From: Nanobdellota archaeon
GTDB lineage: Archaea; Nanobdellota; Nanobdellia; Pacearchaeales; GW2011-AR1
DNA: 32,158 nt
NCBI GenBank assembly: GCA_038045105.1
Contig: JBBSYU010000025.1
Span: 1 to 32,158, forward strand
Reading direction: 5' to 3'
Part shown: positions 74 to 31,997 of the stretch, in pieces
Position numbering within the stretch: position 1 is the stretch's first letter
Layout of the letters: every line of letters starts with the position of its first letter
Notes under the pieces: generated by a model
What the model was told of the DNA's origin: nothing
What the model saw: the letters and a program-made list of their open reading frames with translations, nothing else
The model's database searches: none
Made by a program: the position numbers and the translations under genes

Positions 74-188
74 AATATTGGTAATGTGAAAAATTTAAGA
101 TATAAAGATGAGTAATAAAGCGAGAATGAGTTAATTGCTCTTCAAAATCTTAATCAACTACTAAACAAAGACATTAAGATACCAAAAC
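74..188 (+). repeat. MITE-like intergenic repeat, copy 1 (TTAATCAACTA subfamily)
   Basis: Starts AATATTGGTAATGTG. Contains AAGATGAGTAATAAAG...GAGAATGAGTTAAT and CTTAATCAACTACTAAACAA. Ends ACATTAAGATACCAAAAC. Interior matches copies at 23499-23616 and 27074-27233. Confidence 0.6.
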
Positions 189-191
189 AAA

Positions 192-581
192 ATGAAAAAA
201 GAAATAAAAACAAAATTTGAAAATATAAATAAAATAGCAGAAAAAATATTCAGCAATAAAAATGTTAAGGCTGTTTATTTATTTGGAAGTTATGCAACTG
301 GAAATCCAAAACCTCTCTCTGACATAGATTTATGTGTAATTGGAAATCTTAAAGAAAAAGATAAAATTAAAATTTCTGGTTATAGCTCTGATAATTTAGA
401 CATATCATTTTTTGATGAACTTCCTATTTATATTAAATTCAGAGTTTTTAGAGATGGAAAGCCACTTTTAATTAAAGATGAAAAATATTTATGGTTAATT
501 AAAAAAATTACCCTGAATCAATATAGAGACTTTAAACCCATAATAAATAAAAGAATAAAAGAGGTATTTGAATATGTTTAA
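192..581 (+). CDS. Minimal nucleotidyltransferase (Pol-beta superfamily, MNT/MntA-type antitoxin-like)
   Basis: 129-aa ORF. The motif AVYLFGSYATGNPKPLSDIDLCVIG fits the G[SG]...DxD signature of minimal nucleotidyltransferases. Confidence 0.75.
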   Translation: MKKEIKTKFENINKIAEKIFSNKNVKAVYLFGSYATGNPKPLSDIDLCVIGNLKEKDKIKISGYSSDNLDISFFDELPIYIKFRVFRDGKPLLIKDEKYLWLIKKITLNQYRDFKPIINKRIKEVFEYV

Positions 582-657
582 TAAAGAGAGAATAAGCATT
601 ATTATTGAATATAAAAAAGAGGTGAAAGAAAAGAAGCAAAATGGAAAAAACAAATAA
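574..657 (+). pseudogene. 27-codon ORF overlapping the MNT stop; possible truncated HEPN/DUF86 partner
   Basis: ATG at 574 overlaps the stop of the upstream gene (ATGTTTAA), the usual MNT-HEPN operon geometry. It encodes only MFNKERISIIIEYKKEVKEKKQNGKNK, whereas HEPN partners are >100 aa. Identity is not demonstrable from 27 aa. Confidence 0.2.
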
Positions 658-681
658 AATAATAAAAAGGGGTGAAAAATA

Positions 682-919
682 ATGGGATGGAAAGATTTGC
701 CTTACTGGCTGAAGGGGGGGGATAATTGTATTAATACCTGTTTTAATAATTAATATAATTATTTATTTTATGCTCTCTCAAGATATAGCAAACAGAGGTT
801 CAGAGGCATTTGCAGGAACATTTGTCTTTGGTTTTACAATATTTGGAGGTATTTTTTTAATACTTCTTGGAGTATTAATTGGTTATATTTACGGCAAAAA
901 TAAAGGAGGAAAGAAATAA
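682..919 (+). pseudogene. Small 2-TM membrane protein ORF interrupted by a frameshift at a G8 tract (714-721)
   Basis: GGGGTGA (669-675) lies upstream of ATG 682. MGWKDLPYWLKGG then stops at 751-753. The +1 frame continues IIVLIPVLIINIIIYFMLSQDIANRGSEAFAGTFVFGFTIFGGIFLILLGVLIGYIYGKNKGGKK to the stop at 917-919. G7 or G10 would restore a 78-aa ORF. Confidence 0.4.
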
Positions 920-920
920 A

Positions 921-2640: not shown

Positions 2641-2680
2641 GGTATTTGTAATACAAAACTTTTTAAAAAAGTTTTAACAC
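2641..2680. repeat. Palindromic module P, copy 1 (GGTATTTGTAATAC-AAAACTTTTTAAAAAAGTTTT-AACAC)
   Basis: Nearly identical to 9160-9197 and 15199-15237. The core AAAACTTTTT/AAAAAGTTTT is a 10-bp palindrome. Confidence 0.8.
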
Positions 2681-2682
2681 AT

Positions 2683-2737
2683 CAGAAAATCTATGAGATT
2701 TTCTGTGCCCAAAAATTCTTATGAAAGAATTTTTTGG
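2683..2737. repeat. Twin stem-loop insert
   Basis: Hairpin 1 is CAGAAAATC-TATGA-GATTTTCTG (2683-2705). Hairpin 2 is CCAAAAATTCTT-ATGA-AAGAATTTTTTGG (2709-2737). The segment is absent from the otherwise collinear copy at 15180-15300. Confidence 0.7.
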
Positions 2738-2829
2738 AAATCGGGATTTATCCTGACATGATATAAAACTGATGAGTTATGCAGATGAGATGATTAAAAG
2801 AGAATGAGAAACAAAACTATTAAAATAAA

Positions 2830-5103: not shown

Positions 5104-5220
5104 ATTTATTGGAATTGTATATAATTTAATAGTTATTGTATCTGTTTCATAAGTTGTTTCTCATTAGCCTCCTAATCATCTCATCTTCATAACTTATCAG
5201 ATTTTACATTACCAATATTT
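5104..5220 (-). repeat. MITE-like intergenic repeat, copy 3 (near-consensus)
   Basis: TTATTGGAATTGTATATAATTTAAT...TATCTGTTTCATAAGTTG...CCTAATCATCTCATCTTCATAACTTATCAGATTTTACATTACCAATATT. This is the reverse complement of the + consensus. Confidence 0.85.
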
Positions 5221-5345: not shown

Positions 5346-6143
5346 ATGATACTTACAAATAAACTAAGAAAAACTGGATTTGCCTTAGCAGGCTTAGCAG
5401 GCTTAGTTGGAGGAATGAATTATTCTGGAGAGGGATATGCTCAACAGCAAAATAAACCCGGAGTAAGAGTTTCTGATGGCGCTGATTATGTAATAAGAGC
5501 AGATTACAGAGACAGGGAACATGAATGGAGTTTATATAAAGAACAAGTTAAAAATCCTAGAAAACCCTCTGCAACAGGCAGAACAGATAATGGAAATACT
5601 CAGATAAGCAATCTAAATGAGGATAGAGTTTATGGTATTGGAGGACAAACTGAAAATGATTCAGAGCCTAGATTATCGAGAAATTTTATATTAGAGGATT
5701 TTGCAAAAGCCTATGGAATATCAAAATGGAAAATGTGCTTAACTGAAAGTGAAAGACAAAAAACAGCAGAATTATTTAATAGGCTGGATTTAAATGGGAG
5801 AAAGACTTTATGCAATGTATATGCTAATACTCCGGGTTTTTATGAGGCTAGTTTTTCAGCTGAAGGCAAAAAATCATTTGAAAAATTAAATCAGGCTTAT
5901 CAAAATCTTGTTACAGCAAAGAAAGCAAATGCTTCTCAGGAATTATTTAATAGTGAATTAGAAGGAGCAGTTAGAAAACTTTATCCTTGGATAAGATTTG
6001 ATAATGGAAGGCCTTTGAATGTTCCTGACAGGATGCTTGTATTATGGGTTGCTGACAGCCTGGAAAAGAAATCTGGAAAAAGATTAATTAATTGGGATAA
6101 TGTTGCAAAATACAGTTCAATGCCTGTTCAAGAGAGATTTTGA
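5346..6143 (+). CDS. Secreted/hypothetical protein
   Basis: 265-aa ORF with an N-terminal hydrophobic segment TGFALAGLAGLVGGM. No family recognised. Confidence 0.7.
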   Translation: MILTNKLRKTGFALAGLAGLVGGMNYSGEGYAQQQNKPGVRVSDGADYVIRADYRDREHEWSLYKEQVKNPRKPSATGRTDNGNTQISNLNEDRVYGIGGQTENDSEPRLSRNFILEDFAKAYGISKWKMCLTESERQKTAELFNRLDLNGRKTLCNVYANTPGFYEASFSAEGKKSFEKLNQAYQNLVTAKKANASQELFNSELEGAVRKLYPWIRFDNGRPLNVPDRMLVLWVADSLEKKSGKRLINWDNVAKYSSMPVQERF

Positions 6144-6164: not shown

Positions 6165-6299
6165 TATATTATTGGAATTGAATATTTTTGAGAGTTATGG
6201 CGTCTGTTGATTTGTTGTTTATCAGTTTTTCTACTATACTCTTACTCAACTTAATCTCCTCATCTTCATAGATCATCAAGTTTTTACATTACTGATATT
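6165..6299 (-). repeat. MITE-like intergenic repeat, copy 4a
   Basis: ATTATTGGAATTGAATAT...GAGAGTTATGGCGTCTGTTGATTTG...CTTAATCTCCTCATCTTCATAGATCATCAAGTTTTTACATTACTGATATT. Confidence 0.8.
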
Positions 6300-6323
6300 T
6301 ACCACCTCCTAAATGATATGGAT

Positions 6324-6408
6324 TTATTCTCAATTAAGATATGATGCATCTGTTGTTTTGTTATGGCTTCTTATTATTCACTTTTGTCTTCTTACCTTAT
6401 TTTTATTC
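6324..6408 (-). repeat. MITE-like intergenic repeat, copy 4b (degenerate ends)
   Basis: CAATTAAGATATGATGCATCTGTTGTTTTGTTATGGCTTCTTATT closely matches 21453-21495, but the termini are eroded. Confidence 0.5.
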
Positions 6409-9157: not shown

Positions 9158-9330
9158 GAGTATTAGTAATACAAAACTTTTAAAAAAAGTTTTAACAAAA
9201 ATTAAAAATAATGTGAAATAAATAAGTTATGAAGATGAGTGAGCAAGATGAGTAAGAATATAGAATATACAACTGATAACCTAACAATCAACACACAACA
9301 TAACATTTAAACAATTAACATTACCAGAAT
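9158..9330 (+). repeat. MITE-like intergenic repeat, copy 5 (carries palindromic module P)
   Basis: GAGTATTAGTAATAC is followed by module P, then AATGTGAAATAAATAAGTTATGAAGATGAGTGAGCAAGATGAGTAAG...CTGATAACC...AATTAACATTACCAGAAT. The element ends 4 nt before ATG 9334. Confidence 0.75.
9160..9197. repeat. Palindromic module P, copy 2
   Basis: GTATTAGTAATACAAAACTTTTAAAAAAAGTTTTAACA. It matches copies 1 and 3 except for the T/A run partition at the centre. Confidence 0.8.
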
Positions 9331-12385: not shown

Positions 12386-12470
12386 TATTTATTAGTAATA
12401 TGCCATCCTAAAAAGTTATGTAATTAGTTGATTAAAGAGATTATGCATATTTCAAAAACCAAATAATTTA
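12386..12470 (+). repeat. MITE-like intergenic repeat, copy 6 (short, degenerate)
   Basis: TTATTAGTAATATG...AAAAGTTATGTAATTAGTTGATTAAAGAG...CAAAAACCAAATAA. It contains the TTAATCAACTAATTA motif in inverted sense, so orientation is ambiguous. Confidence 0.4.
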
Positions 12471-12489
12471 TTAAGCAGGATTTTTTAAT

Positions 12490-13028: not shown

Positions 13029-13168
13029 ATATATTTGTAATAGAAAAACCTAAGAAGTTATGAAGATGAGATGATTAAATGAGATAAACAGAAATAAAAT
13101 TTGAGAATCAGAAGCTATAACAAATCAACAGATGTATCATATCTCAAATTACATACAATTCCAATAAA
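13029..13168 (+). repeat. MITE-like intergenic repeat, copy 7a
   Basis: ATATATTTGTAATAGAAAAACCTAAGAAGTTATGAAGATGAGATGATTAAATGAG...AGCTATAACAAATCAACAGATGTATCATATCTCAAATTACATACAATTCCAATAAAT. Confidence 0.85.
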
Positions 13169-13175: not shown

Positions 13176-13292
13176 AAATATCGGTAATGTAAAATAAATA
13201 AGTTTTGCAGATGAGATGATTAAAATATTAGTGAGGAGCAAAATTATGGAACAGATGATATAACTAATAAAAAACATACAATACTAAGGTAA
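13176..13292 (+). repeat. MITE-like intergenic repeat, copy 7b
   Basis: AAATATCGGTAATGTAAAATAAATAAGTTTTGCAGATGAGATGATTAAAAT...AACAGATGATATAACT...ACATACAATACTAAGG. Confidence 0.8.
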
Positions 13293-13294: not shown

Positions 13295-13428
13295 AATTAT
13301 TAGTAATAAAAAAACTTGAGAGATATGGATGAGCAGATTAAGAGAGTAAGAAGGTAGTAGAAAAAACTGATAACATACTTAACAACTGATACTCTAACTC
13401 TTAAATTATATACGATACTGACATAATA
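13295..13428 (+). repeat. MITE-like intergenic repeat, copy 7c
   Basis: AAATTATTAGTAATAAAAAAACTTGAGAGATATGGATGAGCAGATTAAGAG...CTGATAACATACTTAACAACTGATACTCTAACTCTTAAATTATATACGATACTGACATAAT. Confidence 0.75.
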
Positions 13429-14418: not shown

Positions 14419-14548
14419 TATATTGGTAATATCAAAAAAACTGACAAGTTATGGGTGAGATGATTAAATTGAGTGAGAGTATAGCAAAAAACTGATAACT
14501 CGCTTAACAACTGACACCATAACTTTCAAATTATATGATACCAATACT
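14419..14548 (+). repeat. MITE-like intergenic repeat, copy 8
   Basis: TATATTGGTAATATCAAAAAAACTGACAAGTTATGGGTGAGATGATTAAATTGAG...CTGATAACTCGCTTAACAACTGACACCATAACTTTCAAATTATATGATACCAATAC. Confidence 0.85.
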
Positions 14549-14550: not shown

Positions 14551-14569
14551 GTTGGTAATCAATTCCAAC
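14551..14569. repeat. Terminus-only mini element (left and right termini fused: GTTGGTAATCAATTCCAAC)
   Basis: TTGGTAAT (left-terminus core) abuts AATTCCAA (right-terminus core) with no interior. It lies directly after copy 8. Confidence 0.45.
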
Positions 14570-15179: not shown

Positions 15180-15375
15180 AATATTGATAATGAAAAGAGG
15201 TATTAGTAATACAAAACTTTTTAAAAAAGTTTTAACAAAATCAGGATTTATCCTGACATGATATAAAACTGATGAGTTATGCAGAGGAGAGATTAAACTA
15301 GTGAAAGTAGATTAAAAGACTGATAAACACTTAATCAACAAATGACATAACTGCTAAATAATTAACATTACCAAC
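15180..15375 (+). repeat. MITE-like intergenic repeat, copy 9 (composite; uninterrupted paralogue of copy 2)
   Basis: AATATTGATAATGAAAAGA is followed by module P, then ATCAGGATTTATCCTGACATGATATAAAACTGATGAGTTATGCAGAGGAGAGATTAAA...CTGATAAACACTTAATCAACAAATGACATAACTGCTAAATAATTAACATTACCAAC. Confidence 0.8.
15199..15237. repeat. Palindromic module P, copy 3
   Basis: GGTATTAGTAATACAAAACTTTTTAAAAAAGTTTTAACA. It differs from copy 1 at about 2 positions. Confidence 0.85.
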
Positions 15376-21430: not shown

Positions 21431-21522
21431 TTCTTATTGGAATTGTGTATAATTTAAGATATGATGCATCTGTTAATTTATTATGGCTTCTGATTCATCA
21501 AGTTTTTTACATTACCAATATC
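21431..21522 (-). repeat. MITE-like intergenic repeat, copy 10b (short; lacks the GATGAG core)
   Basis: TTCTTATTGGAATTGTGTATAATTTAAGATATGATGCATCTGTTAATTTATTATGGCTTCTGATTCATCAAGTTTTTTACATTACCAATATC. Confidence 0.8.
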
Positions 21523-21650
21523 TATTTTAGTATCATATATTCTTTATCAGTTATGACATCTGTTTATTTTAGAGTTTGATATTGCTTCATCTCAACTTAC
21601 GCTTTAATCTACTCGTTAACATTTCTTAAGCTTCTATATTACCAATATCC
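21523..21650 (-). repeat. MITE-like intergenic repeat, copy 10c
   Basis: TATTTTAGTATCATATATTCTTTATCAGTTATGACATCTGTTTATTTTAGAGTTTGATATTGCTTCATCTCAACTTACGCTTTAATCTACTCGTTAAC...CTATATTACCAATATCC. Confidence 0.8.
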
Positions 21651-21775
21651 ATTTTGGTATCATATGTCTATTATCAGTTATAACATCTGTTTATTTTAGA
21701 GTTTGATATTGCTTCATCTCAACTTACTTTCTAATCTTCTCACAAACATATCTTATTCTTTATATTACTAATAAT
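21651..21775 (-). repeat. MITE-like intergenic repeat, copy 10d (near-identical tandem twin of 10c)
   Basis: It shares a >40-nt identical run (ACATCTGTTTATTTTAGAGTTTGATATTGCTTCATCTCAACTTAC) with 10c and ends TATATTACTAATAATT. Confidence 0.8.
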
Positions 21776-22469: not shown

Positions 22470-22563
22470 TAAAAAAGTTATAGCATCTGTTCATTTCTTT
22501 GTTTCTCATTAACATATTAATCTCCTCACCCATAACATCTTAGTTTTTTGTATTACTGATAAT
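22470..22563 (-). repeat. MITE-like intergenic repeat, copy 11 (one terminus eroded)
   Basis: AAAAGTTATAGCATCTGTTCATTTC...CATATTAATCTCCTCACCCATAACATCTTAGTTTTTTGTATTACTGATAAT. Confidence 0.65.
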
Positions 22564-23479: not shown

Positions 23480-23498
23480 ATAAAAAATATAAAATTAA

Positions 23499-23616
23499 AA
23501 ATCAGTAATACATATCATTTAAGAGATGTTGGTGAGAAGATTAGGTTATGGAAGATTAAAATAAATCTCTTAATCAACTAATTAAACAACTTCTAAGAAT
23601 TAGACATTACCAAATT
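23499..23616 (+). repeat. MITE-like intergenic repeat, copy 12 (TTAATCAACTA subfamily)
   Basis: AAATCAGTAATACATATCATTTAAGAGATGTTGGTGAGAAGATTAGGTTATGG...CTCTTAATCAACTAATTAAACAACTTCTAAGAATTAGACATTACCAAATT. Confidence 0.75.
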
Positions 23617-23668
23617 ATTTAGCTGATTTTCAGATAGATATTTAAAGATTATTCCTTTAAATTAGATT

Positions 23669-24235
23669 ATGAAAAAAAGAGCGAAAAGAAAAGAAAATAA
23701 GCCTGAAAATGTTAAGTCCTCTGATAACATACCTGCTGTTTTAATAAGATATTTAATATTATTGGGATTAATGTTTTCTCTGCCTTTAATTTACAGGATT
23801 TTTGCTCCTTTGACAATGTATCCTGTTGTCTGGTTGCTTAAGATTTTCTATAATGTTTCTCTTTCAGGAAGTTTTATATTAATCAATCTTATTCCAAAAA
23901 TTGAACTAATTCCCGCATGCATAGCTGGTTCTGCTTATCTATTGCTTTTAATTTTAAACCTGACTGTTCCTATGAAGATTAAGAAAAGGATTTATTCAAT
24001 AATTCTCTCTTTTTTGCTTCTGCTTATATTAAATATATTGAGAATCTTCTTTTTAGCAATACTTTATCATAATAATTTTGCTTATTTTGACATTACACAT
24101 AAATTCTTCTGGTATTTCCTAAGCACTATATTTGTTGTAGGAATCTGGTTGTTTATTGCAAAGATATTTGCAATAAAAGAGATACCTGTTTATAGTGATA
24201 TAAAGGGATTGATGAAAGATCTGAAAAAGAAATGA
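23669..24235 (+). CDS. Exosortase/archaeosortase-family protein (short, archaeal type)
   Basis: 188 aa with about 5 TM segments. Conserved-looking Cys (IPACIAGSAYLLL), Arg (LILNILRIFFLAIL) and His (DITHKFFWYFLSTIFVVG) occur in the order expected for the family's Cys/Arg/His triad. Confidence 0.65.
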   Translation: MKKRAKRKENKPENVKSSDNIPAVLIRYLILLGLMFSLPLIYRIFAPLTMYPVVWLLKIFYNVSLSGSFILINLIPKIELIPACIAGSAYLLLLILNLTVPMKIKKRIYSIILSFLLLLILNILRIFFLAILYHNNFAYFDITHKFFWYFLSTIFVVGIWLFIAKIFAIKEIPVYSDIKGLMKDLKKK

Positions 24236-24275
24236 TTTTATTAGAATTATTATATTTCTCCTTCCTGCCACTCTT

Positions 24276-24418
24276 TTCTTATTGGAATTGCCTATCTCTT
24301 ATCAGTTATGGCTTATGTTGATTAAGCGAGATTGTAGTTTTTGTTGCTCTCTTACTTTCCTCACAACCATCTTAATCTTCCCATAAACATTTCTCATATT
24401 GTAGATTACTGAAATATT
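24276..24418 (-). repeat. MITE-like intergenic repeat, copy 13a
   Basis: TTCTTATTGGAATTGCCTATCTCTTATCAGTTATGGCTTATGTTGATTAAGCG...CCATCTTAATCTTCCCATAAACATTTCTCATATTGTAGATTACTGAAATATT. Confidence 0.7.
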
Positions 24419-24420
24419 TT

Positions 24421-24577
24421 ATTAGAATCATAAAAATTTTAACAGAGGTTTAATTAGTTGATTAAATTTTGACATCTGATAATTTGTTTTACTTTTGAAT
24501 TCATATCTTCCTGCTTCTCATCTCAATAACTTAATCTCCTTATAAATAACTTATCAGTTTTTAACATTACCAATATT
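24421..24577 (-). repeat. MITE-like intergenic repeat, copy 13b (TTAATCAACTA subfamily)
   Basis: ...GGTTTAATTAGTTGATTAAATTTTGACATCTGATAATTTG...CTGCTTCTCATCTCAATAACTTAATCTCCTTATAAATAACTTATCAGTTTTTAACATTACCAATATT. Confidence 0.75.
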
Positions 24578-24691
24578 TATTGGAATTGCATATTATTTAA
24601 AATATGGAGCATCTGTTGATTTGTTATGGCTTATGTTTCATGTCTCTTGCTTCTCATCTGCACAACTTCTTAGTTTTTATATTACTAATAC
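24578..24691 (-). repeat. MITE-like intergenic repeat, copy 13c
   Basis: TATTGGAATTGCATATTATTTAAAATATGGAGCATCTGTTGATTTGTTATGGCTTATG...CTTGCTTCTCATCTGCACAACTTCTTAGTTTTTATATTACTAATAC. It abuts 13b terminus-to-terminus. Confidence 0.8.
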
Positions 24692-24742
24692 ATTATCAAA
24701 AGATAGATAATAAATATTACTAAAAAAATATATAAGAAATTC

Positions 24743-26467
24743 TTATTGATATCCTTCTCTTGGAGAAGAAACCATTCTTCTTATAACAGCGATTATAGCT
24801 ATGATTAATATTAAATTAACCAATACTATCAAGTATATGAACCAGTTGTTCTTAAAGTGATTAACAACTGACTGATAGTCTGTTGATTGTGCTTTTACAA
24901 CTGAAAGAGATACTTTTTGTTCAACTGCTTTGTCTCCTGCTGTTCCATAAGCAGCCCTTATTATAAATTCTTTGTCTCCTTGTGCTGCTGAATCTACATT
25001 AAGAACTATGCTTGCATCTTTTGATTGTCCTGGAGAAAGTGTTATAGTCTGGGGGTCTATTGAAACTAGGCTTGACCATGCACTATTTCCATATATTGAT
25101 AAAGTATAAGTAGTGTCTGTAGTTCCTGTATTTTTCAGTGTTGCCTGGATTATTACTTGTTTTCCTGCTGATGCTTCTGGTGTTTGGGGGTCAAGCTGAG
25201 CTGATATTTTTAATTGAGAGGCAGGTGTTGTTGGAGTTGCTGCTTGGCAATTTCCTAATACTTTAATTGTTTTTGTGAATTTCTTGCTTGATATTTCGCT
25301 GTAACTTCCTGAACCACTGTCATCATAATCATAATATGTTTTAAATTCTAAATCATAAGATTTTTCAGCAGCTTTAGCAGGTATGTTAAAACTAAAGTCC
25401 ACTGTGTATGAATCTCCCTGGTCAAGGTCTTCTTGTATTACCTGATTTAAGTCAATTCCTAATTCTTTATTATATAGTGTAACTTTAAACTGATCTAGAT
25501 AATCAACATCACCTATATTTACAACCTCTGCAGAAGCCTGAACAGTATCACTGCATTGAGCTGTTTCTTCTGGTGACAATACTATCTTGTCAACAACAAC
25601 ATGTTTATCAATATCTTCTTCTCTTGTTCCAGAGACTGCTTGAAAATATCTTCCATCTAAATCAGAAGAAAAAGAACTGCATATCTGGTCTTCTTTTCCA
25701 CTTGAATAAGTTTTTATTACAAGATTATAATTTCCTTCTTTAAAGTCTGTTGGAACATTAAATTTGAATTCAACTGTTTTCTCCTTGCTATCTGCAAGAC
25801 TGCTTAAGCTTATTTTTTTATTATCTAAATTATCCATATTTCCAATAACATTTTTTCCAGTTGAATCAAGTAATCCTAATTCAACATAAACACTGCTTAC
25901 TCTATTATTTCCTGTATTTTCAACTTTTACTTTAACACTTATTGGATCTAAAGGCGTCCATTCAGTGTCATCTCCATCATCATTTCTTATATCCACACTA
26001 GATATTGTTAATGTTTGGTCAGCTGTTCCGACTTCTCCTGATTTACAAAATGTGCTTAAAAATTTTACAGGTATAGTTAAAGGATGAGTGATAGAAGAAT
26101 TAGTAACAGATGTTGCTGTTGCAATTATATTTTTTGTATATTCTCCTACTTTAAAATTAGTCGCATCTCCTGAATAAGCAAAACTTATCAATCCTGTGTT
26201 TTGATTTGTTAAAACATTATTATAAACCAAAGATGAAGGTGTTGTAAGTGTAAGAATATGTGTGTTTCCATCATCAAATATAATAGGAAGCCCTGTAAGC
26301 TGTATATTTACTGCATCTGTTCCTGAATTAGTTATTGTAAAATTAGTCTGTGTAAGTGATTTTGTTAAACTAGCAGGAGTTGTTGAAGCGATTAGGACTG
26401 CTGCATTGACAACTGCAAGTGTTAAAATTGTCGTTAATAAAAATAAAGATATTATTTTTGATTTCAT
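24743..26467 (-). CDS. Surface protein with CARDB/COG1361-like beta-sandwich repeats and a C-terminal TM anchor
   Basis: 574 aa with signal IISLFLLTTILTLAVVNA. Repeated motifs are VENTGNNRVSSVYVELGL, VVNIGDVDYLDQFKVTLYN and LKNTGTTDTTYTLSIYG. The C-terminus is NNWFIYLIVLVNLILIIAIIAVIRR. The gene is convergent with the archaeosortase-family gene. Confidence 0.8.
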   Translation of the reverse strand: MKSKIISLFLLTTILTLAVVNAAVLIASTTPASLTKSLTQTNFTITNSGTDAVNIQLTGLPIIFDDGNTHILTLTTPSSLVYNNVLTNQNTGLISFAYSGDATNFKVGEYTKNIIATATSVTNSSITHPLTIPVKFLSTFCKSGEVGTADQTLTISSVDIRNDDGDDTEWTPLDPISVKVKVENTGNNRVSSVYVELGLLDSTGKNVIGNMDNLDNKKISLSSLADSKEKTVEFKFNVPTDFKEGNYNLVIKTYSSGKEDQICSSFSSDLDGRYFQAVSGTREEDIDKHVVVDKIVLSPEETAQCSDTVQASAEVVNIGDVDYLDQFKVTLYNKELGIDLNQVIQEDLDQGDSYTVDFSFNIPAKAAEKSYDLEFKTYYDYDDSGSGSYSEISSKKFTKTIKVLGNCQAATPTTPASQLKISAQLDPQTPEASAGKQVIIQATLKNTGTTDTTYTLSIYGNSAWSSLVSIDPQTITLSPGQSKDASIVLNVDSAAQGDKEFIIRAAYGTAGDKAVEQKVSLSVVKAQSTDYQSVVNHFKNNWFIYLIVLVNLILIIAIIAVIRRMVSSPREGYQ

Positions 26468-26656
26468 TTTTGTTATAATTTTTGAGTTATAACACCTTTA
26501 TAAACTTTTCTGTCTTGAAAAATATATGTCAGAAAAATAGAAAAAATAAGAAATTAGTGTCTAAATTCAGTAATAAAAAAGTTTATAAGAGGGTTTTACT
26601 TAGAATAAACAATAGCATAGGGCTATGAATAGAATAAACATAAAAAGGAGGTTCAA

Positions 26657-27019
26657 ATGAAGCTTAGAGATAAAATAGGTGCATGGATTTTTTTACTAGG
26701 GGTAGTGCTTGCTGTAATCTCAGGAATATTTACTGTTTCTAACAGCATTGTGTTTGCGCTTTTAGTATTAGTTGGAATTTTAGTTGGTTTTTTGAATGTG
26801 ACTGGAAAAGAATCTTCTAAATTTCTATTGGCAGGAGCTGTATTAGTTATTGTTTCTTATATGGGACAGAGTGCTATTTCTGCTTTCAGCACTATTACTA
26901 TAGGGCCATTAACTATAGGGACAATGATTACTGGAATATTAAATGCATTGTTAATACTATCTGTTCCAGCTGTAATAATTGTTGCACTAAAATCAATAGT
27001 TAATATTGCTAAGAACTAA
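26657..27019 (+). CDS. Small polytopic membrane protein (about 4 TM, hypothetical)
   Basis: 120 aa. A strong SD (AAAGGAGG) lies 7 nt upstream, and the protein is hydrophobic throughout. Confidence 0.75.
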   Translation: MKLRDKIGAWIFLLGVVLAVISGIFTVSNSIVFALLVLVGILVGFLNVTGKESSKFLLAGAVLVIVSYMGQSAISAFSTITIGPLTIGTMITGILNALLILSVPAVIIVALKSIVNIAKN

Positions 27020-27022
27020 ACC

Positions 27023-27050
27023 TTTTGTTTTTTTATTTTTTTTGTATTTT
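27023..27050 (+). terminator. Oligo-T terminator
   Basis: TTTTGTTTTTTTATTTTTTTTGTATTTT lies immediately after the stop at 27017-27019. Confidence 0.6.
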
Positions 27051-27073
27051 GTGTAGATTGCCTATTATATAAT

Positions 27074-27233
27074 AGAAGTAATAGGATGAATTAAGAGATG
27101 TGGGTGAGAAGCAAGAGTTATTTTATAAGATGCATAATCACTTACAGAAAATAATAATTTTCTGTCTGTTAAATTCTTACGAATTAAACATAATCAACTA
27201 ATTAACCATCTCCTAAAGTTTTACATATTATCC
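27074..27233 (+). repeat. MITE-like intergenic repeat, copy 14a (TTAATCAACTA subfamily; carries a CAGAAAAT hairpin)
   Basis: GAAGTAATAGGATGAATTAAGAGATGTGGGTGAGAAGCAAGAGTTAT...[hairpin]...ACATAATCAACTAATTAACCATCTCCTAAAGTTTTACATATTATCCAG. It parallels copy 12. Confidence 0.65.
27144..27165. repeat. CAGAAAAT hairpin module, copy 3 (ACAGAAAAT-AATA-ATTTTCTGT)
   Basis: 9-bp perfect stem nested inside repeat copy 14a. Confidence 0.7.
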
Positions 27234-27239
27234 AGAAAG

Positions 27240-27382
27240 TATCAGTAATGTATAAACCTGATAAGTTATGAAGATGAGATGATTAAGATGTTTATGAGAA
27301 AGAAAATAAGTAGATGAATACAATTCATCAAGGTGACAAATCAACAGATGAAACATATCTTAAGTTATAGATAATACTATAG
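27240..27382 (+). repeat. MITE-like intergenic repeat, copy 14b
   Basis: TATCAGTAATGTATAAACCTGATAAGTTATGAAGATGAGATGATTAAGATG...GACAAATCAACAGATGAAACATATCTTAAGTTATAGATAATACTATAG. Confidence 0.8.
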
Positions 27383-27484
27383 TGAATAACATTAATTTTC
27401 GTAACTTTTGATGTTATTCCCTAAATAGTAAATCACTAACACTTATACGATTATTAAAGTGATTTCCTATAATAAAGATTAATA

Positions 27485-28108
27485 TTATATTTCAGAAATT
27501 TCTGCGTAATTAATAATATCCGGGTTATCATATGATAATCCTAAACATGCTGTATTTACCCAGGAATCTATATTAAAGTTCTCAAACTGGGTTGTGTCTA
27601 TATTATTAGAAAGGAAAATAAATGCATTTTTCCCTTTTTTGCTTAGTTTTTGCCTTAATTTAATAGCAAGTTCAATATTTTCCTGTCCTGGCTTTGTTGA
27701 AATCAGTATTCCTATATTGTTTGCCTTAAGGAATTTTAATAACGCAGCTCTTCTTTTTGCTTTTAGTTTTTCTATTTCTTCTTTAGGTATTTGTTTTATT
27801 GAGTTGTTAGCTATTATATATAGGCTAGAAACCTGGTGAAGAAGATTAAGATAGTGAAAGTCTCCGCCCCCAATAAAAAGCACAGGAAATTGGGTATTAA
27901 TCTTTGAACATCCAAGAACCTGCTGAAAACCTGTTATTTTTATTTTGTTTTCTTTATTGCTTGTTAATTGTTTTTTTATTTTTAGTGCAATGTCCTTATA
28001 TTGCACAGAATAAGCAATAAAGAGCATTTTAGGAAGCTTTTTTATTCCATTATCTGAAATATTAATATCCAAATTCTTTAGTTTTGATTCTATGTAGAGG
28101 ATTTTCAT
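27485..28108 (-). CDS. dph2: Dph2-like diphthamide synthesis protein lacking the N-terminal domain
   Basis: 207 aa. QQVLGC, VLFIGGGDFHYLNL, IGILISTKPGQ and WVNTACLGL match, from memory, the domain 2-3 motifs of archaeal Dph2 (QVLGC, ILFIGSGIFHPLGL, FGVIVSIKKGQ, VVVACPR). Archaeal Dph2 is normally ~330-350 aa. Confidence 0.65.
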   Translation of the reverse strand: MKILYIESKLKNLDINISDNGIKKLPKMLFIAYSVQYKDIALKIKKQLTSNKENKIKITGFQQVLGCSKINTQFPVLFIGGGDFHYLNLLHQVSSLYIIANNSIKQIPKEEIEKLKAKRRAALLKFLKANNIGILISTKPGQENIELAIKLRQKLSKKGKNAFIFLSNNIDTTQFENFNIDSWVNTACLGLSYDNPDIINYAEISEI

Positions 28109-28165
28109 AAAAAGAATAGAAAATGGAGATTTAAAGAAGTTTTGATTAAATAATTCATATTGTTT

Positions 28166-28258
28166 ATATTAGTAATATGCAATTTTATCAGTTATGGCAT
28201 CTGTTAATTTCACTTAATCTCCTCGTTAACATTTCTTAAGTTAGTTACATTACCAATA
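28166..28258 (-). repeat. MITE-like intergenic repeat, copy 15 (short)
   Basis: TATATTAGTAATATGCAATTTTATCAGTTATGGCATCTGTTAATTTCACTTAATCTCCTCGTTAACATTTCTTAAGTTAGTTACATTACCAATAA. Confidence 0.8.
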
Positions 28259-28302
28259 AATATATCTTTCATACTATAAATTATCCAATTTTATTTCCAG
28301 AA

Positions 28303-28746
28303 TCACTCATTCATTCTGTTTCTGTCTCTGTCCCTATCTCTGTCTCTGTCCCTATCTCTGTCTCTATCCCTGCCATCCCTATCCTGCGGAGGCGCTGGTC
28401 TTTCAGAAGACTTGTGGATTTCTGCAAAAGAAGGTGTTACAATAATTATGTTTTCGCCAAAACCAGCTATGCTTCCTTCTAAAGCATCTGTTGTCTTTTT
28501 TATTTTGGAAATTGCTCTTTTTAATTCAATAACATCCTTTGCCCTTAATGGTTTTATGTCAATTATTGCAATTGTATAACCTTCTCTTAAAGAATTAAGA
28601 ATAGGTGTAATGTCTTCAAAGCTTTTTAGAACAAAAGGACGCACTAAAATCTTGGATTTTTTGACTTCTCTGCCTAAGTCAATCTCAATATATTCTGGCT
28701 CGTCACCGCCTCCTCCGAACACTCTTTTTAATTTATCAAACACCAT
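28303..28746 (-). CDS. sepF: Archaeal SepF-like cell-division protein with C-terminal Arg-Asp dipeptide-repeat tail
   Basis: 147 aa. The N-terminal amphipathic MVFDKLKRVFGGGG is followed by the core ILVRPFVLKSFEDITPILNSLREGYTIAIIDIKPL...GSIAGFGENIIIVTP, typical of SepF/DUF552. The tail is RDGRDRDRDRDRDRDRDRDRNR. Confidence 0.75.
   Translation of the reverse strand: MVFDKLKRVFGGGGDEPEYIEIDLGREVKKSKILVRPFVLKSFEDITPILNSLREGYTIAIIDIKPLRAKDVIELKRAISKIKKTTDALEGSIAGFGENIIIVTPSFAEIHKSSERPAPPQDRDGRDRDRDRDRDRDRDRDRNRMNE
28321..28374. repeat. 3 x 18-nt tandem repeat (TCTGTCTCTGTCCCTATC) encoding the (RD)n tail of SepF
   Basis: Units lie at 28321-28338, 28339-28356 (identical to the first) and 28357-28374 (2-3 substitutions). 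Confidence 0.85.
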
Positions 28747-28834
28747 GATTTAAAATTAAATTATATAGTTTATAAACATTTCTATGATGTGAAATAGATT
28801 ACTCTTTGAAACAATAAAAATTAGATAATATGCC

Positions 28835-28952
28835 TGGGGAATGTTAATAATTCAAAGCGAATCATCTGTTTATTAAGGAGTTTTGCAATTGCTCTCATCC
28901 GTAACTTAATCTGCTCATCAATATTTCTTAATTCATTACATTATTGATATAT
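28835..28952 (-). repeat. MITE-like intergenic repeat, copy 16
   Basis: TGGGGAATGTTAATAATTCAAAGCGAATCATCTGTTTATTAAGG...CTCTCATCCGTAACTTAATCTGCTCATCAATATTTCTTAATTCATTACATTATTGATATAT. Confidence 0.7.
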
Positions 28953-28976
28953 TCATCCAGTATAAGAATACTAAAT

Positions 28977-29345
28977 TTATTTTATTTTTTTCATGACTTC
29001 TTCTTTTAATTTTTCTGACTGCTCTGTCAGATGAGATTCCTGCTTTTCAAATGATTTTAATCTCAAAGAAAGAACATCAATTTTCTGCTTCAAATCTTTT
29101 TCTGTTTTTTCTTTTTGTGTTTTTATTATTATGTTTCCTATTAATTTGAAAATATCTTCTTTTGATTTTGAAATTTCAGAAAGAGCATTTTCTGATTCAT
29201 TCAATTCTGCCTGGAAAACCTGTTTTTGAAGAAGCAATCCATGAAGATTCTGCTCATAAGCCTGAAGCTCTTGAATTTTTTCCTGCGTTTCTTTGTCAAT
29301 GTTCATTTTATTAAAAATCACCTCAATAATTTTTGGTAATATCAC
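28977..29345 (-). CDS. pfdB: Prefoldin beta subunit
   Basis: Coiled-coil protein. IQELQAYEQNLHGLLLQKQVFQAELNESENALSEISK...IDVLSLRLKSFEKQESHLTEQSEKLKEEV fits the prefoldin beta architecture. The likely true start is MNIDKE at 29306 (109 aa). Confidence 0.75.
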   Translation of the reverse strand: MILPKIIEVIFNKMNIDKETQEKIQELQAYEQNLHGLLLQKQVFQAELNESENALSEISKSKEDIFKLIGNIIIKTQKEKTEKDLKQKIDVLSLRLKSFEKQESHLTEQSEKLKEEVMKKIK

Positions 29346-29461
29346 AACTTACAAATCTTATTCTCACTTGATTGAGCTGTAACCTGAATGAATTTTATTC
29401 ATTTACTTACTTTACATTGATATATTACAAATATGTTTTTTATTAAGCATTAAATAGATAA

Positions 29462-29599
29462 TCAGACAGCTTTAATCTTTACAACTGTGCTTCTTGGTTT
29501 ATAAAATATTTTAGAGCCGCAATGAGGACAAAGAAATCTTTTTTGAAGAAGATTGTTTGTGATTTTTTTTCCGCATTTGAAACATTTGTATGTTGCCAT
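29462..29599 (-). CDS. rpoP: DNA-directed RNA polymerase subunit P (Rpo12/RpoP)
   Basis: This 45-aa ORF is not in the track. MATYKCFKCGKKITNNLLQKRFLCPHCGSKIFYKPRSTVVKIKAV has a CxxC...CxxC zinc ribbon with the C-terminal FYKxR typical of RpoP. It sits in the usual rpl37ae-rpoP neighbourhood. Confidence 0.75.
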   Translation of the reverse strand: MATYKCFKCGKKITNNLLQKRFLCPHCGSKIFYKPRSTVVKIKAV

Positions 29600-29649
29600 T
29601 TTATTTGTTGTTTTTTATATTATTTAAATTTTTCCTAAAATTTAAATCC

Positions 29650-29679
29650 CTCTAAAATTAATATCTCAAAATTTTAGAG
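29650..29679. other. 10-bp perfect inverted repeat CTCTAAAATT-N10-AATTTTAGAG immediately downstream of the rpl37ae stop
   Basis: Read directly. It lies between rpl37ae and rpoP on the - strand and may be an intercistronic hairpin. Confidence 0.35.
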
Positions 29680-29919
29680 TTATTTAAGTTTTGCTGTTAC
29701 TTCTTCTTTTTTTGGAAGATAATAAGCATGCGCTGCAAACTTTTTATTGCATTTTCTGCAATGCCAGATTCCTTTTGAAGTTCTTTTTGCAATTCCATTG
29801 CAAAATATGCAATTTTGTTTTTTTCTCTGAATATTTTCAACTTCTGTTATCTTAAGCCTGACGCTTCTTCCATATCTTGCCTTGAATCTTCCTGCTGCTT
29901 TTACTTTTTTTGTTCTCAT
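29680..29919 (-). CDS. rpl37ae: Ribosomal protein eL43 (L37Ae)
   Basis: 79 aa. KKVKAAGRFKARYGRSVR...CIFCNG...WHCRKCNKKFAAHAY is the characteristic N-terminal basic motif plus a C4 zinc ribbon. Confidence 0.9.
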   Translation of the reverse strand: MRTKKVKAAGRFKARYGRSVRLKITEVENIQRKKQNCIFCNGIAKRTSKGIWHCRKCNKKFAAHAYYLPKKEEVTAKLK

Positions 29920-29994
29920 GTTGAATTTTTTCTTATTTGATTTTATTTAATTTATATTAATAAATAAGATATTATTTGATGGAAATGAGGGTTT

Positions 29995-30411
29995 TTAAAA
30001 TGTGTGGTTTTTATTTAGATGTTTATAAATTTCTTTTAGTATGTCAAGATCATGCTCAACACCTTTTAAATTAAAGCAATCATTTAATCTCTTGACTACT
30101 GGATTACCTTCTCCATTTTTTAATTTATTCAAATCTGGCATTGGTGCAATATAAATGAATCTTTCAACCTCAAGATTGATTGTTTTAAAAATCATTTTGT
30201 CTTTTTTGAAAAATTCATATTCTTTAATAGTTATTCCTAGTTCTTCTTTAATCTCTCTTTTTAAAGCCTCATCGGGAGTTTCATTTTCTTCAATTCCTCC
30301 TCCAAAAAATCCATATTCTTCTCCATGTTTACTAATTTCTCTCCTATCCTGCAATAAAATATTTCCTTTTTCATCATAAAAAATAATTATAGAAACTTTT
30401 CTTTTTTCCAT
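29995..30411 (-). CDS. NUDIX hydrolase
   Basis: 138 aa with the Nudix box GGGIEENETPDEALKREIKEELGI (Gx5Ex7REUxEExGU). Confidence 0.85.
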   Translation of the reverse strand: MEKRKVSIIIFYDEKGNILLQDRREISKHGEEYGFFGGGIEENETPDEALKREIKEELGITIKEYEFFKKDKMIFKTINLEVERFIYIAPMPDLNKLKNGEGNPVVKRLNDCFNLKGVEHDLDILKEIYKHLNKNHTF

Positions 30412-30420
30412 TTTAAATAA

Positions 30421-30494
30421 TGGGGTCGCTGAGATTTGAACTCAGATCGCAAAGTCCCAAACCTTGAATGTTAACCAGATTGCACCACGACCCC
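30421..30494 (-). tRNA. tRNA-Pro (anticodon UGG), no encoded CCA
   Basis: The reverse complement folds as a cloverleaf. The acceptor is GGGGTCG/CGACCCC. The anticodon stem is CAAGG/CTTTG with loop TTTGGGA (anticodon TGG, G37). The T arm is CTGAG-TTCAAAT-CTCAG and the discriminator is A. Length 74 nt. Confidence 0.9.
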
Positions 30495-30568
30495 CTGAAA
30501 ATATTAAAATTAAGCTATTTATAAAGATGTTGATTTATAGAAGAATATTAAAAGAGAATTAATCAAAA

Positions 30569-31312
30569 TTATTTCTTTTTCTCAGCAGGCTTTGTTGCAG
30601 CCGGTTTTGATGCTGCTCCTGCTGAACCTGCTCCGGGTTTAGCACCTTCTGTTTTTGGTGCTGCAGATGTTGCTGTTGTTGCTGCTCCTGCCGCAGGCAC
30701 TGCTGCAGCTGTTGCTTTTGCTGCTTCTGCTTCTTCAGCAGCTTTCTTAGCTAGATCTGCTTTCAAGTCCTGAGCAACTTTTATCTTTTTATAAAAATCA
30801 TCAAGTTTTTTTCTTTTTTCAATCGGAGTCTCTGATAGTTTTTGATTTATTTCTTTATCAAATTTTCCCTCTGCAACTTCAATAATTAATTCATTTGGAT
30901 TTTTGTCTTCAACAAAAATTCCCATTGCTGCACAAGTTCCTAAAATTGATTTAACTGCTGATTTGAAATCTTTTTCAAGCATATTTGCCTGCTTTACCTT
31001 AGCAACCTTGATTATGTCTTCAATAGATGCGTTTCCCATTTTTATTTCATTGATTTTTGCAGAACCTTTTTCTATTTTTAATTCTTTTTTAATTAATTCT
31101 GATGCAGGAGGTGAAAATACTTTTACATAAAACTCTTTTGTTTTTTTATCAACATCAATTTCAACAGGAACTTTCATTCCATGAAATTCTTTTGTTGAGT
31201 TATTTACTTCAGAAATAACCTTACCTATATTGATGCCTATTGGGCCAAGCTGTTGGGCTATTGCAGGGCCTGGCTTCATGTCTCCGCCTTCAATTAGCAA
31301 CTTAATAATCAT
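30569..31312 (-). CDS. rpl11: Ribosomal protein uL11 with ~85-aa Ala/Lys-rich C-terminal extension
   Basis: IKLLIEGGDMKPGPAIAQQLGPIGINIGKVISEVNNSTKEF...GTCAAMGI is the L11 core (~160 aa). An additional tail follows: ...AEEAEAAKATAAAVPAAGAATTATSAAPKTEGAKPGAGSAGAASKPAATKPAEKKK. The start overlaps the spt5 stop by 11 nt. Confidence 0.9.
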   Translation of the reverse strand: MIIKLLIEGGDMKPGPAIAQQLGPIGINIGKVISEVNNSTKEFHGMKVPVEIDVDKKTKEFYVKVFSPPASELIKKELKIEKGSAKINEIKMGNASIEDIIKVAKVKQANMLEKDFKSAVKSILGTCAAMGIFVEDKNPNELIIEVAEGKFDKEINQKLSETPIEKRKKLDDFYKKIKVAQDLKADLAKKAAEEAEAAKATAAAVPAAGAATTATSAAPKTEGAKPGAGSAGAASKPAATKPAEKKK

Positions 31313-31865
31313 CAGGTATTAATCCTCCGCTTGGTTCATCATAACTTTTATTTATTTTCAGTTCTTCATCTGATTCATCCTTTTTAATGTTTTCTCCTTT
31401 ATCTGATTCTTCAGTTTCTCCTTCTTCTTTTTCTCTCCTTATTACTTTGATATTATCAAGTTTTACTGTAACTGGAATTGGAACAATTGCTGCAAGAAGA
31501 GTAACAACTGCTTCTCCTTTTGACTTGTCAATACGAATGACTTTTGCTTTTTCCTTTTTGAATGGCTCCCCAATTATCTCGACAATGTCTCCTTTTTCAA
31601 TATTAATCTCTTCAAGAACAGGCTCTATCATATTTTTTATTTCAGAATAATCAACGGTTTTTCCGATTATTCCTTTTACATAAGGAAGATTATATGCTGC
31701 TTCTTCTGCTGATTCCCTGTCTTCTGCTTCCAGGAAAATATAACCTCTCAAGCCATGAGGGCGTGCAAGAGCATAAACATTAAGATTATGTTTGTGAACT
31801 TTTACAGATATCATTTCCAATGCTCTGTCTTCCTTGTTTGTTGTTACTTTAATTATAAAAATCAT
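31302..31865 (-). CDS. spt5: Transcription elongation factor Spt5 (archaeal NusG) with acidic C-terminal tail
   Basis: The NGN domain is FIIKVTTNKEDRALEMI...RGYIFLEAEDRESAEEA...VKGIIG. The KOW motif is KGDIVEIIGEPFKKEKAKVIRIDKSKGEAVV. The gene lies upstream of rpl11 as in most archaea. Confidence 0.9.
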   Translation of the reverse strand: MIFIIKVTTNKEDRALEMISVKVHKHNLNVYALARPHGLRGYIFLEAEDRESAEEAAYNLPYVKGIIGKTVDYSEIKNMIEPVLEEINIEKGDIVEIIGEPFKKEKAKVIRIDKSKGEAVVTLLAAIVPIPVTVKLDNIKVIRREKEEGETEESDKGENIKKDESDEELKINKSYDEPSGGLIPDDY

Positions 31866-31883
31866 TTTTTATTTATCTGTGTT

Positions 31884-31997
31884 ATATTGGTAATGTAATA
31901 TTAATAAGTTTTGGCTTCTGTTGATTTGCGTTAAATCATGTTGATTCGCTTAATCTCAGTAGCTTATCTTATCTGTTTATACAATACTAATATTTAT
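31884..31997 (-). repeat. MITE-like intergenic repeat, copy 17
   Basis: ATATTGGTAATGTAATATTAATAAGTTTTGGCTTCTGTTGATTTGCG...CGCTTAATCTCAGTAGCTTATCTTATCTGTTTATACAATACTAATATT. Confidence 0.7.

Follow-up and report, generated by a model that had tools for sequence, protein, structure and literature searches.

Correia elements of Neisseria are intergenic repeats of about 100-150 bp with inverted ends, which occur in full and internally deleted forms and whose promoter- and terminator-like parts affect neighboring genes. Their copies are much alike, carry a TA target-site duplication and hairpins cleaved by RNase III, and account for about 2% of the genome. The BOX elements of Streptococcus pneumoniae, like the Rickettsia palindromic elements, are modular, mosaic and dispersed, with conserved boxes and variable interiors; they have no recognizable duplication and no known transposase, and have expanded in small or host-dependent genomes. 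Palindrome-associated elements derived from IS200/IS605 insertion sequences, for example in Haloquadratum, have subterminal hairpins and a fixed short target, and lack terminal inverted repeats. Here we describe a family of short repeats in the intergenic spacers of a 32,158-nucleotide stretch of DNA from a Nanobdellota archaeon, hereafter the window (contig JBBSYU010000025.1 of assembly GCA_038045105.1, positions 1-32,158 of the forward strand; AT-rich, with a G+C content of about 30%). The copies are probably a lineage-specific family of short, non-coding, non-autonomous insertions of the kind known as MITEs (for miniature inverted-repeat transposable elements), lodged in the intergenic spacers of one Nanoarchaeota/Pacearchaeota-type genome from the Hainich groundwater.

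The family belongs to the same size class as the Correia elements and resembles them in its inverted ends, its filling of intergenic space, its full and deleted forms and its likely action on neighboring genes through promoter- and terminator-like parts, but the TA duplication, the RNase III-cleaved hairpins, the high similarity between copies and the share of about 2% were not found in it. With the BOX and Rickettsia elements it has in common a modular, mosaic and dispersed build, conserved boxes and variable interiors, the absence of a recognizable duplication and of a known transposase, and an expansion in a small or host-dependent genome, but no sequence relationship, and whereas Rickettsia elements also insert in genes and fold well, the copies described here are strictly intergenic and mostly non-folding. 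Like the IS200/IS605-derived elements the family has no duplication and a strand-biased orientation; unlike them it has long inverted arms, no hairpins and no fixed target. Archaeal MITEs, such as SM1-SM4 of Sulfolobus solfataricus and those of the MITE-rich DPANN genomes in the census cited below, likewise encode no transposase. They too are short and AT-rich, lack coding capacity, end in terminal inverted repeats, occur in many intergenic copies and are specific to their host lineage. The family departs from them in a pairwise identity between copies of only about 63% (maximum 86%), in the lack of a duplication and in that no parent insertion sequence was identified for it.

A 2024 census found the top archaeal MITE densities in DPANN, with 146 per Mb in Ca. 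Altiarchaeum and 105 per Mb in a Woesearchaeon, and MITEs amounting to at most 1.23% of any prokaryotic genome (PMC11602168). According to a 2024 review, a plant-like MITE load of 8-10% has not been observed in prokaryotes (PMC10969869). The family described here reaches about 700-800 copies per Mb and occupies 7-8.5% of the DNA. By number this exceeds the archaeal maximum about fivefold, and by fraction the highest value about sixfold, but the methods behind these figures are not comparable (the surveys need near-identical copies with duplications) and our sample is only 85 kb. It is a very dense case of a known kind of element, whose mobilizing mechanism we infer.

Copies of the repeat family and their anatomy

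An iterative nhmmer search seeded with the single copy at 13026-13175 converged on 24 matches in the window, and a later model rebuilt with copies from other contigs gave 26 matches at E<=0.01, the number estimated in the original prediction, which had been made from the sequence alone. The family covers about 2.74 kb, or 8.5% of the window, somewhat less than the predicted 10%. The statement that nearly every spacer longer than about 100 bp is filled proved too strong, as 17 of 24 such spacers are occupied; the copy-free ones lie at 582-878, 10033-10425, 16003-16486, 18190-18601, 26468-26656, 29346-29994 and 30412-30568. Copies are 85-175 bp long, are non-coding with no associated open reading frame (ORF), and number from 0 to 4 per spacer; many are truncated or internally deleted. 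No significant nhmmer match to the family fell inside a window gene. All of the motifs quoted in the original prediction are present far above chance, among them CTGATAAGTTATGAAGATGAGATGATTAAG (4 matches, 0 expected) and ACATTACCA (10 matches, 0.22 expected), the latter including the three exact-complement ends that it had pointed out, matched at 9318-9326, 15365-15373 and 23604-23612. Its two interior subfamilies were recovered through the motifs AACAGATGCATCATATCT (5 matches) and TTAATCAACTAATTAAACA (4 matches), as were its three arrays, at 13032-13418 (3 copies), 21317-21773 (4) and 24284-24690 (3). The nested insertions that it also mentioned were not seen.

The model has a consensus of 128 positions (about 130 bp), TATTGGTAATGTAAAAAATTGATAAGTTATGTAGATGAGAAGATTAAG...AATCAACAGATGCCATAACTCTTAAATTATATACAATACCAATA, which can be summarized as TATTGGTAATGTAAAAAATTGATAAGTTATGTAGATGAGAAGATTAAG-(variable)-AATCAACAGATGCCATAACTCTTAAATTATATACAATACC(AATA). 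Similarity between copies stops at the termini that had been proposed: at the left end conservation and information content jump sharply at TATTGG, and at the right end conservation drops after ATACCAATA, less abruptly. The termini read TATTGGTAAT... and ...ATACCAATA, or ACATTACCAATA in single copies. TA precedes TTGG in 43 of 49 left ends and follows CCAA in about one third of right ends; this right-end frequency led us to reject TA as a target-site duplication and to assign it to the left terminus.

The ends had been described as imperfect inverted repeats, and this was borne out. The consensus left arm and the reverse-complemented right arm align imperfectly over about 47 nt with a score of 15, compared with 0.1 +/- 3.6 for shuffled sequence, and none of 2000 shuffles matched that score. 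Three boxes are common to both arms, TATTGGTAWT (terminal TATTGGTAAT), AGTTATG and TGATTAA (TGATTAAG); their positions are 80-99% conserved, compared with 40-60% in the middle of the element, which is variable and prone to indels. The consensus, read by eye, has stop codons in all frames. Variants include a short internally deleted form (21434-21520), pieces that consist of the left arm alone, a subfamily whose right arm differs yet has the same end, ACATTACYRATA, and long forms with extra small hairpin modules (those starting at 2643, 9161 and 15201 in Table 1). No clear co-variation of the arms within copies was seen for the TTGG, TCAG and TTAG variants.

The long hairpin that the original prediction envisaged holds for two of the 28 copies tested by folding against shuffled sequence (z < -3), namely 14419-14547 (z -6.75) and L128:7961-8083 (z -3.4). 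For the remaining 26, with z between -2.1 and +2.0, folding was no stronger than in shuffled controls. No copy has a match in Rfam; tRNA aside, nothing in Rfam reached the gathering score, and at E<=1 only two weak, unrelated matches appeared. Three readings of the core GATGAGATGATTAAG were dropped on inspection by eye: a C/D-box RNA (the box lacks the second GA of a C box), a small ORF (the short ATG-started frames are not conserved) and a Shine-Dalgarno-like signal (the likeness to a ribosome-binding site is only partial).

The prefoldin of the window is encoded also by identical contigs in groundwater assemblies of Hainich well H43, and its Dph2 is MEK6859330.1, from a 'Nanoarchaeota archaeon' metagenome-assembled genome (MAG) at NCBI, with nearest homologues that carry the name Pacearchaeota. 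Replicate assemblies of the locus are 99.9-100% identical over their aligned length, across the copies, so the repeats are not an assembly artefact. When a metagenome collection was searched with a 21-base core pattern, eleven contigs matched: nine of them come from the well of the window, without overlapping it, and two from other metagenomes. One of the nine (L125) duplicates part of another (L126), and the eight non-redundant Hainich contigs were used. They carry 36 further copies, so that the occurrence of the family elsewhere in the population, beside housekeeping genes, agrees with what was expected of a mobile element. Genes on these contigs include those for eRF1, a class I (Ile/Leu/Val/Met-type) tRNA synthetase, ScpB, the CCA-adding enzyme, a thioredoxin-reductase-like protein, GTPase proteins, a DEAD helicase and OapC. 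Over the 85.5 kb of window and contigs combined, 61 non-overlapping copies were counted; their density is 713 per Mb, and they occupy 7.2% of the DNA. All 61 are intergenic, which has a chance of about 1e-39 given 23% intergenic DNA.

The left-arm core also occurs alone (AGTTATGCAGATGAGATGATTAAGCTT) in the intergenic DNA of the two AT-rich archaeal contigs from other metagenomes, L117:920-973 and L124:403-448 (JGI Ga0315292 and Ga0315276), and thus exists beyond the Hainich population. L124 has it 45 nt upstream of a gene that resembles endonuclease V, and encodes in addition an L15e-like protein (both identified by eye). A scan of species-representative genomes with a pattern that was too loose gave 112 single chance matches in unrelated bacteria and is uninformative on distribution. 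Three patterns run against viral contigs gave one chance match of 31 nt only, in a single virus represented four times. FtsZ homologues tried as a continuation of the window contig proved to belong to different relatives.

Syntenic loci in relatives

Syntenic sister loci were reached through homologues of the window's Dph2 on contigs L131 (77% identity), L132 (67%) and L134 (66%). All three have the gene order of window positions 16877-31865, and in none was a family copy detected, even at E<=10. Dispersed repeats are likewise absent from L132 and L134, compared with 14 repeat pairs in the equivalent 20.6 kb of the window. The orthologous spacers of the sisters are much shorter: 41-72 nt versus 194 nt between sepF and dph2, 21-50 nt versus 507 nt after the CARDB-domain gene, and 143-172 nt versus 634 nt before the S-layer-like gene. 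By coordinate arithmetic, intergenic DNA makes up 23.8% of the window block and 13.5% of L134, and recognized copies (1,427 bp) equal about 80% of the 1,785-bp intergenic excess over L134.

In the spacer between pfdB and sepF the element is separate from the native promoter region. The last 75 nt or so before sepF (28747-28820, minus strand) are nearly identical to L131, with 2 mismatches, and are recognizable in L132 and L134; this block includes GAAATGTTTATAAAC at the place where other window genes have a TATA-like box. The family copy lies just after the pfdB stop codon, upstream of the conserved block. Since the native sepF block is conserved in the sisters and lies outside the copy, the element is an insertion and not the promoter of that gene. 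The conservation of the block is itself far higher than expected of a spacer between genomes whose Dph2 proteins are only 77% identical, and it represents the promoter and leader of sepF, or possibly a small conserved RNA.

The absence of copies from orthologous sites is shown at the level of deep relatives only (Dph2 66-77% identical), and no exact empty site was found. One candidate came from L003 (Logan ERR3858118), which matches the window perfectly until just after the pfdB stop codon and continues with a 78-nt tail (1100-1177). The tail matches none of the sequences compared and does not rejoin the sepF promoter, and was rejected as an empty site; it is probably a chimeric join, or otherwise a strain variant of the pfdB-sepF spacer.

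Orientation, missing duplications and rival explanations

The original prediction had counted the presence of both orientations among the signs of mobility, but orientation is strongly biased and not random. Of the spacers between co-directional genes, 21 have copies co-oriented with the genes and 5 have anti-oriented ones (p = 0.0025), copies within any one spacer all point in the same direction, and orientation switches in only 9 of 53 adjacent pairs. Whole contigs are uniform: L119 (10/10), L122 (4/4), L126 (4/4), L123 (5/5) and L128 (5/5), the last two irrespective of local gene direction. Nor is there the fixed orientation and distance to the start codon that had been named as the mark of a conserved promoter, since both orientations occur and the distance from a copy to the next start codon ranges from -8 to 845 nt.

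The two strands of the element differ in their likely effect on transcription. Oligo-T is the archaeal transcription termination signal. The sense strand, with 43.5% A, has a run of at least 5 T in 0 of 61 copies; on the antisense strand 33 of the 61 have one. Such antisense runs would stop transcription, so antisense copies would be tolerated only before genes with a promoter of their own. Genes 6444 and 22631, which lie behind antisense copies, have their own TATA-like boxes at -29. Co-oriented copies lie 6-33 nt from the start codon in 11 of 41 cases, and anti-oriented copies are never closer than 53 nt. Native promoters here have a TATA-like box at -27 to -37. Sense copies that abut a start have no other TATA-like box, and their right arm has AAATTATATA or TTTAAACAATTAA at the native distance; at genes 9334 and 12490 it places a TATA-like stretch at about -34 and -28, as in native promoters. 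The bias is most simply explained by selection after insertion.

That the copies are mobile, non-autonomous and not a promoter of paralogues is well supported. That they form a classical transposase-driven MITE we infer, a duplication and a partner transposase not having been found, and several observations weigh against it. No target-site duplication of 2-9 bp rose above permuted controls in 32 full-length copies, at fixed or free offsets, even though the terminal box is 90-99% conserved. Had the copies been young enough for descent alone to preserve their ends, a duplication would still be expected to show; decay of old flanks could account for its absence. No transposase or integrase was found among 48 ORFs in 85 kb (28 window ORFs scanned with Pfam, 10 of them re-scanned with NCBIfam, and 20 ORFs of L119, L120, L123 and L128 scanned with Pfam), which for the window agrees with the original prediction, and no longer element with family termini was found on the scanned contigs. 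Pairwise identity is 0.70 and 0.64 in the arms and 0.47 in the middle, and the similarities of left and right arms between copies are uncorrelated (r = -0.03), a pattern that fits constraint or gene conversion on the arms just as well as multiple source elements. Well-kept termini without a duplication are not accounted for by the MITE interpretation, and leave room for constraint or gene conversion on the arms or for a duplication-free mechanism. For cut-and-paste elements whose ends are inverted, such an orientation bias is unusual. No presence/absence polymorphism appears in the replicate assemblies, which are identical. Finally, the extra contigs were picked by the repeat motif, which biases the density outside the window upward, and membership of all nine contigs in one genome is not proven, although two of the extra contigs share with the window a second element, 95-99% identical. 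Of the MITE interpretation, the dispersed inserted element that is not a paralogue promoter stands; the hairpin fails for most copies, orientation is biased, and the duplication and the transposase were looked for and not found.

If the copies are insertions of the MITE kind, the three arm boxes would be likely binding sites of the moving enzyme, and mobilization would have occurred in trans, through a transposase whose gene lies elsewhere in the genome or has since been lost. Insertions would be retained only where harmless, and the copies are indeed located past one gene's stop codon or terminator and ahead of the following gene's native promoter. Inside transcription units, T-run termination would let copies survive in the sense orientation only, and where a sense copy abuts a gene it may in some cases have come to provide that gene's TATA box. 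The family appears old and is not demonstrably active, and its copies have roughly doubled the intergenic fraction relative to that of relatives.

Much of the same evidence would suit functional intergenic cassettes under selection, whose arm boxes bind a host protein, or which serve as promoter (sense) and terminator (antisense) modules that organize transcription units or the chromosome. The conserved arms with their uncorrelated similarities, the well-kept termini with no duplication surviving, the 21:5 orientation bias, uniform in every spacer, the TATA-like stretches at native distance in sense copies 6-33 nt from starts, and the lone left-arm core upstream of the endonuclease V gene on L124 all agree with such a role. 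We nevertheless consider it rather unlikely: the sisters manage the same genes without the element, the native sepF promoter is separate, spacers hold from 0 to 4 copies, in both orientations across the family, many copies are truncated or internally deleted, there is no known binding protein, and poor alignment of the indel-rich middle inflates its contrast with the arms. A little more weight goes to a broader form of the idea, still tentative, in which selection or gene conversion keeps the three-box arms in place as orientation-dependent transcription punctuation, in a genome whose spacers are otherwise very short (the sense orientation allowing read-through and sometimes providing the TATA box of a leaderless gene, antisense oligo-T stopping transcription) or as abundant binding sites of a DNA-handling protein, the elements having spread by a duplication-free, strand-specific mechanism.

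Alternatively, the family may move as single-stranded DNA, being an IS200/IS605-type (palindrome-associated) or other duplication-free element whose insertion is oriented by replication. This would account for the absent duplication, the contig-wide uniform orientation with switches in 9 of 53 pairs, and the better conserved left end. It seems improbable, as inverted ends of about 47 nt are absent from the IS200/IS605 family, stable subterminal hairpins are lacking (fold z near 0), no conserved target of 4-5 nt adjoins the left end, only background A-richness, no TnpA or TnpB was seen among the scanned ORFs, and the directions of genes and replication are inseparable on such short contigs. Multi-copy genes for small structured RNAs, or cis-regulatory RNA leaders, would fit the bias of the sense strand with transcription, the strongly conserved blocks and the one copy that folds very well, but are very improbable for a family with no Rfam match even at E<=1, in which only 2 of 28 copies out-fold shuffled sequence, which is widely variable in length and interior, and which relatives lack. 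Ordinary duplication without mobility, of paralogue upstream regions or of tandem or larger segments, is largely refuted. One adjacent pair of copies is 85-86% identical with a 127-bp period, and the first half of the window has many unannotated, possibly related surface-protein genes; yet on many contigs the copies are flanked by housekeeping genes that are unrelated to one another, similarity does not extend beyond the element ends, both orientations occur, and other array neighbors are no closer than distant copies (identity 0.68 vs 0.63), so the arrays are mostly independent insertions or very old.

Neighboring features and significance

Table 1. Repeat copies and terminus pair in the window (positions in the window; a dash separates motifs joined in the sequence)
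Position	Strand	Feature	Support
76..187	+	Family copy, right arm ...AATCAACTACTAAACA...GATACCAAAA subfamily; ends 4-5 nt before ATG 192	nhmmer E 6e-7
2643..2815	+	Long composite variant lacking a right arm; has left terminus TATTTGTAATAC, additional hairpin modules and left-arm core	
5107..5217	-	Full copy, anti-oriented to flanking + strand genes	nhmmer E 6e-18
6169..6297	-	Full copy, anti-oriented	E 1e-20
6320..6388	-	Partial copy, right half only	nhmmer
9161..9327	+	Long variant; right end ACATTACCA, 8 nt before ATG 9334	nhmmer
12390..12476	+	TTAATCAACTAATTA-subfamily copy, 13 nt before ATG 12490	nhmmer
13032..13167	+	Full copy, array of 3, no. 1	E 2e-18
13179..13284	+	Full copy, array of 3, no. 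2	E 1e-13
13298..13418	+	Full copy, array of 3, no. 3	E 4e-16
14421..14546	+	Full copy; sole strong-hairpin copy of the window (z -6.75)	
14552..14568	+	Two termini back to back, TTGGTAAT-C-AATTCCAA, lacking an interior; mini-element or footprint	1 match vs 0.02 expected
15201..15374	+	Long variant with hairpin modules; right end ACATTACCAA	
21312..21427	-	Full copy, array of 4, no. 1, downstream of S-layer-like gene, anti-oriented	
21434..21520	-	Short variant: both termini, left-arm core internally deleted	
21530..21647	-	Full copy; 86% alignment-column identity to next copy (BLAST 85%)	
21656..21773	-	Full copy	
22473..22561	-	Copy without right terminus, anti-oriented	E 4e-13
23499..23613	+	Near-symmetric copy, matches model both ways; TTAATCAACTAATTAAACA subfamily	
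24279..24412	-	Full copy, array of 3, no. 1, convergent spacer	
24421..24577	-	Full copy, TTAATCAACTAATTAAACC subfamily	
24578..24690	-	Full copy	E 2e-16
27078..27217	+	Weak diverged copy	E 0.008
27240..27377	+	Full copy with the exact 30-nt core quoted in the original prediction	
28174..28258	-	Short copy in sepF-dph2 spacer (sisters: 41-72 nt, empty)	
28837..28949	-	Copy between pfdB stop codon and conserved native sepF promoter	
31885..31992	-	Copy upstream of spt5	

A second, unrelated MITE of 151 bp lies at 16020-16170, with a perfect 13-bp terminal inverted repeat, TGCTCTGTCCGGA...TCCGGACAGAGCA. Further copies, 95-99% identical, occur on two of the extra contigs, at L119:8669-8818 and L123:10400-10553. 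An 8-bp target-site duplication was recognized by eye, CTTCATTA on L119 and TAACAACC/TAACAGCC in the window. This young element, with its inverted repeat and duplication, shows that transposition does occur in this genome and has done so recently. The terminus of this MITE has GCTCTGT in common with the inverted repeat of an IS5-type element on L140, described below.

Other dispersed sequences accompany the family. Small paired hairpins, of which the first is CAGAAAAT-loop-ATTTTCTG and the second an A/T hairpin (for example AAATTCTT-ATGA-AAGAATTT), adjoin or sit inside family copies (window 2683-2740, 15393-15440 and 27145-27185; L123:225-247; L128:9419-9436). The pair was also found at L139:5654-5700 and 10590-10640, inside the 210-bp element of that contig, where the stem sequences differ and pairing is kept; the pair could be an independent mobile module or else a structured signal. 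A further repeated module, 95 nt long, immediately follows the copy at 27240-27377 (27378-27472) and is 96% identical to L123:11751-11845, which is also beside a family copy.

L139 (GCA_038044985.1, JBBSYY010000031.1) comes from a related Nanoarchaeota MAG and has no copy of the family. It carries two 98% identical copies of a different, young element of 210 bp, with ends TAATAACTATAGT...GACTATAATA, in the spt5-L11 spacer and the pfdB-sepF spacer (5605-5814 and 10541-10750); the pfdB-sepF spacer also holds a family copy in the window. On L140 (Logan SRR21361663), a gene for a 265-amino-acid DDE_Tnp_1 (IS4/IS5-type) transposase lies between ftsZ and spt5 at 10538-11335, with inverted repeats on either side (GGCACAGTTGAAAATCTC, and GAGACATTTTCAACAGAGCC in reverse complement). 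The occurrence of the L139 element and the L140 transposase in such spacers indicates that invasion recurs in this group.

The right end of the window consists of housekeeping genes: dph2, sepF, prefoldin beta, L37ae, a NUDIX gene, tRNA-Pro, L11 and spt5. Elsewhere the window has an S-layer-like gene, a CARDB-domain gene, an HTH gene and a PIN gene, and a run of ORFs without a Pfam match, ten of which also had no NCBIfam match above cut-off. The Dph2 gene product (27485-28108) is short, 207 amino acids, covering Pfam model positions 64-274 of 302, and L11 (30569-31312) is long, 247 amino acids. Both features recur in relatives (199-238 amino acids among the closest Dph2 homologues listed, 243-253 for L11 in the relatives compared), and are therefore traits of the group and not truncations caused by the repeats. 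Beside the second MITE, within 16284-16861, a 70-amino-acid ORF (MEIKTIAKRWGSSIGVILPKSF...), which by eye resembles an antitoxin, overlaps the beginning of the PIN-domain gene (16487-16861), and the two are likely a toxin-antitoxin pair. An ORF called from 14549 starts inside the bare terminus pair TTGGTAAT-C-AATTCCAA. Its true start looks like the ATG at 14577 (MINKITKKSKKGQ...), which resembles the start of the ORF at 9334 (MINKSIK...).

DPANN archaea are usually called streamlined, coding-dense and poor in mobile elements, and the genome described here has about twice the intergenic DNA of its relatives. Should the whole genome prove as densely occupied, its load would exceed severalfold the highest reported for MITEs in any archaeon and come near plant-like proportions. 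This would bear on the strength of selection for compactness in episymbiotic archaea, and on a possible rewiring of promoters and terminators by such elements where transcripts are leaderless. With a different young element present in the same spacers of L139, these archaea may commonly have been invaded more than once, and this may have been overlooked because standard MITE finders need near-identical copies with duplications.

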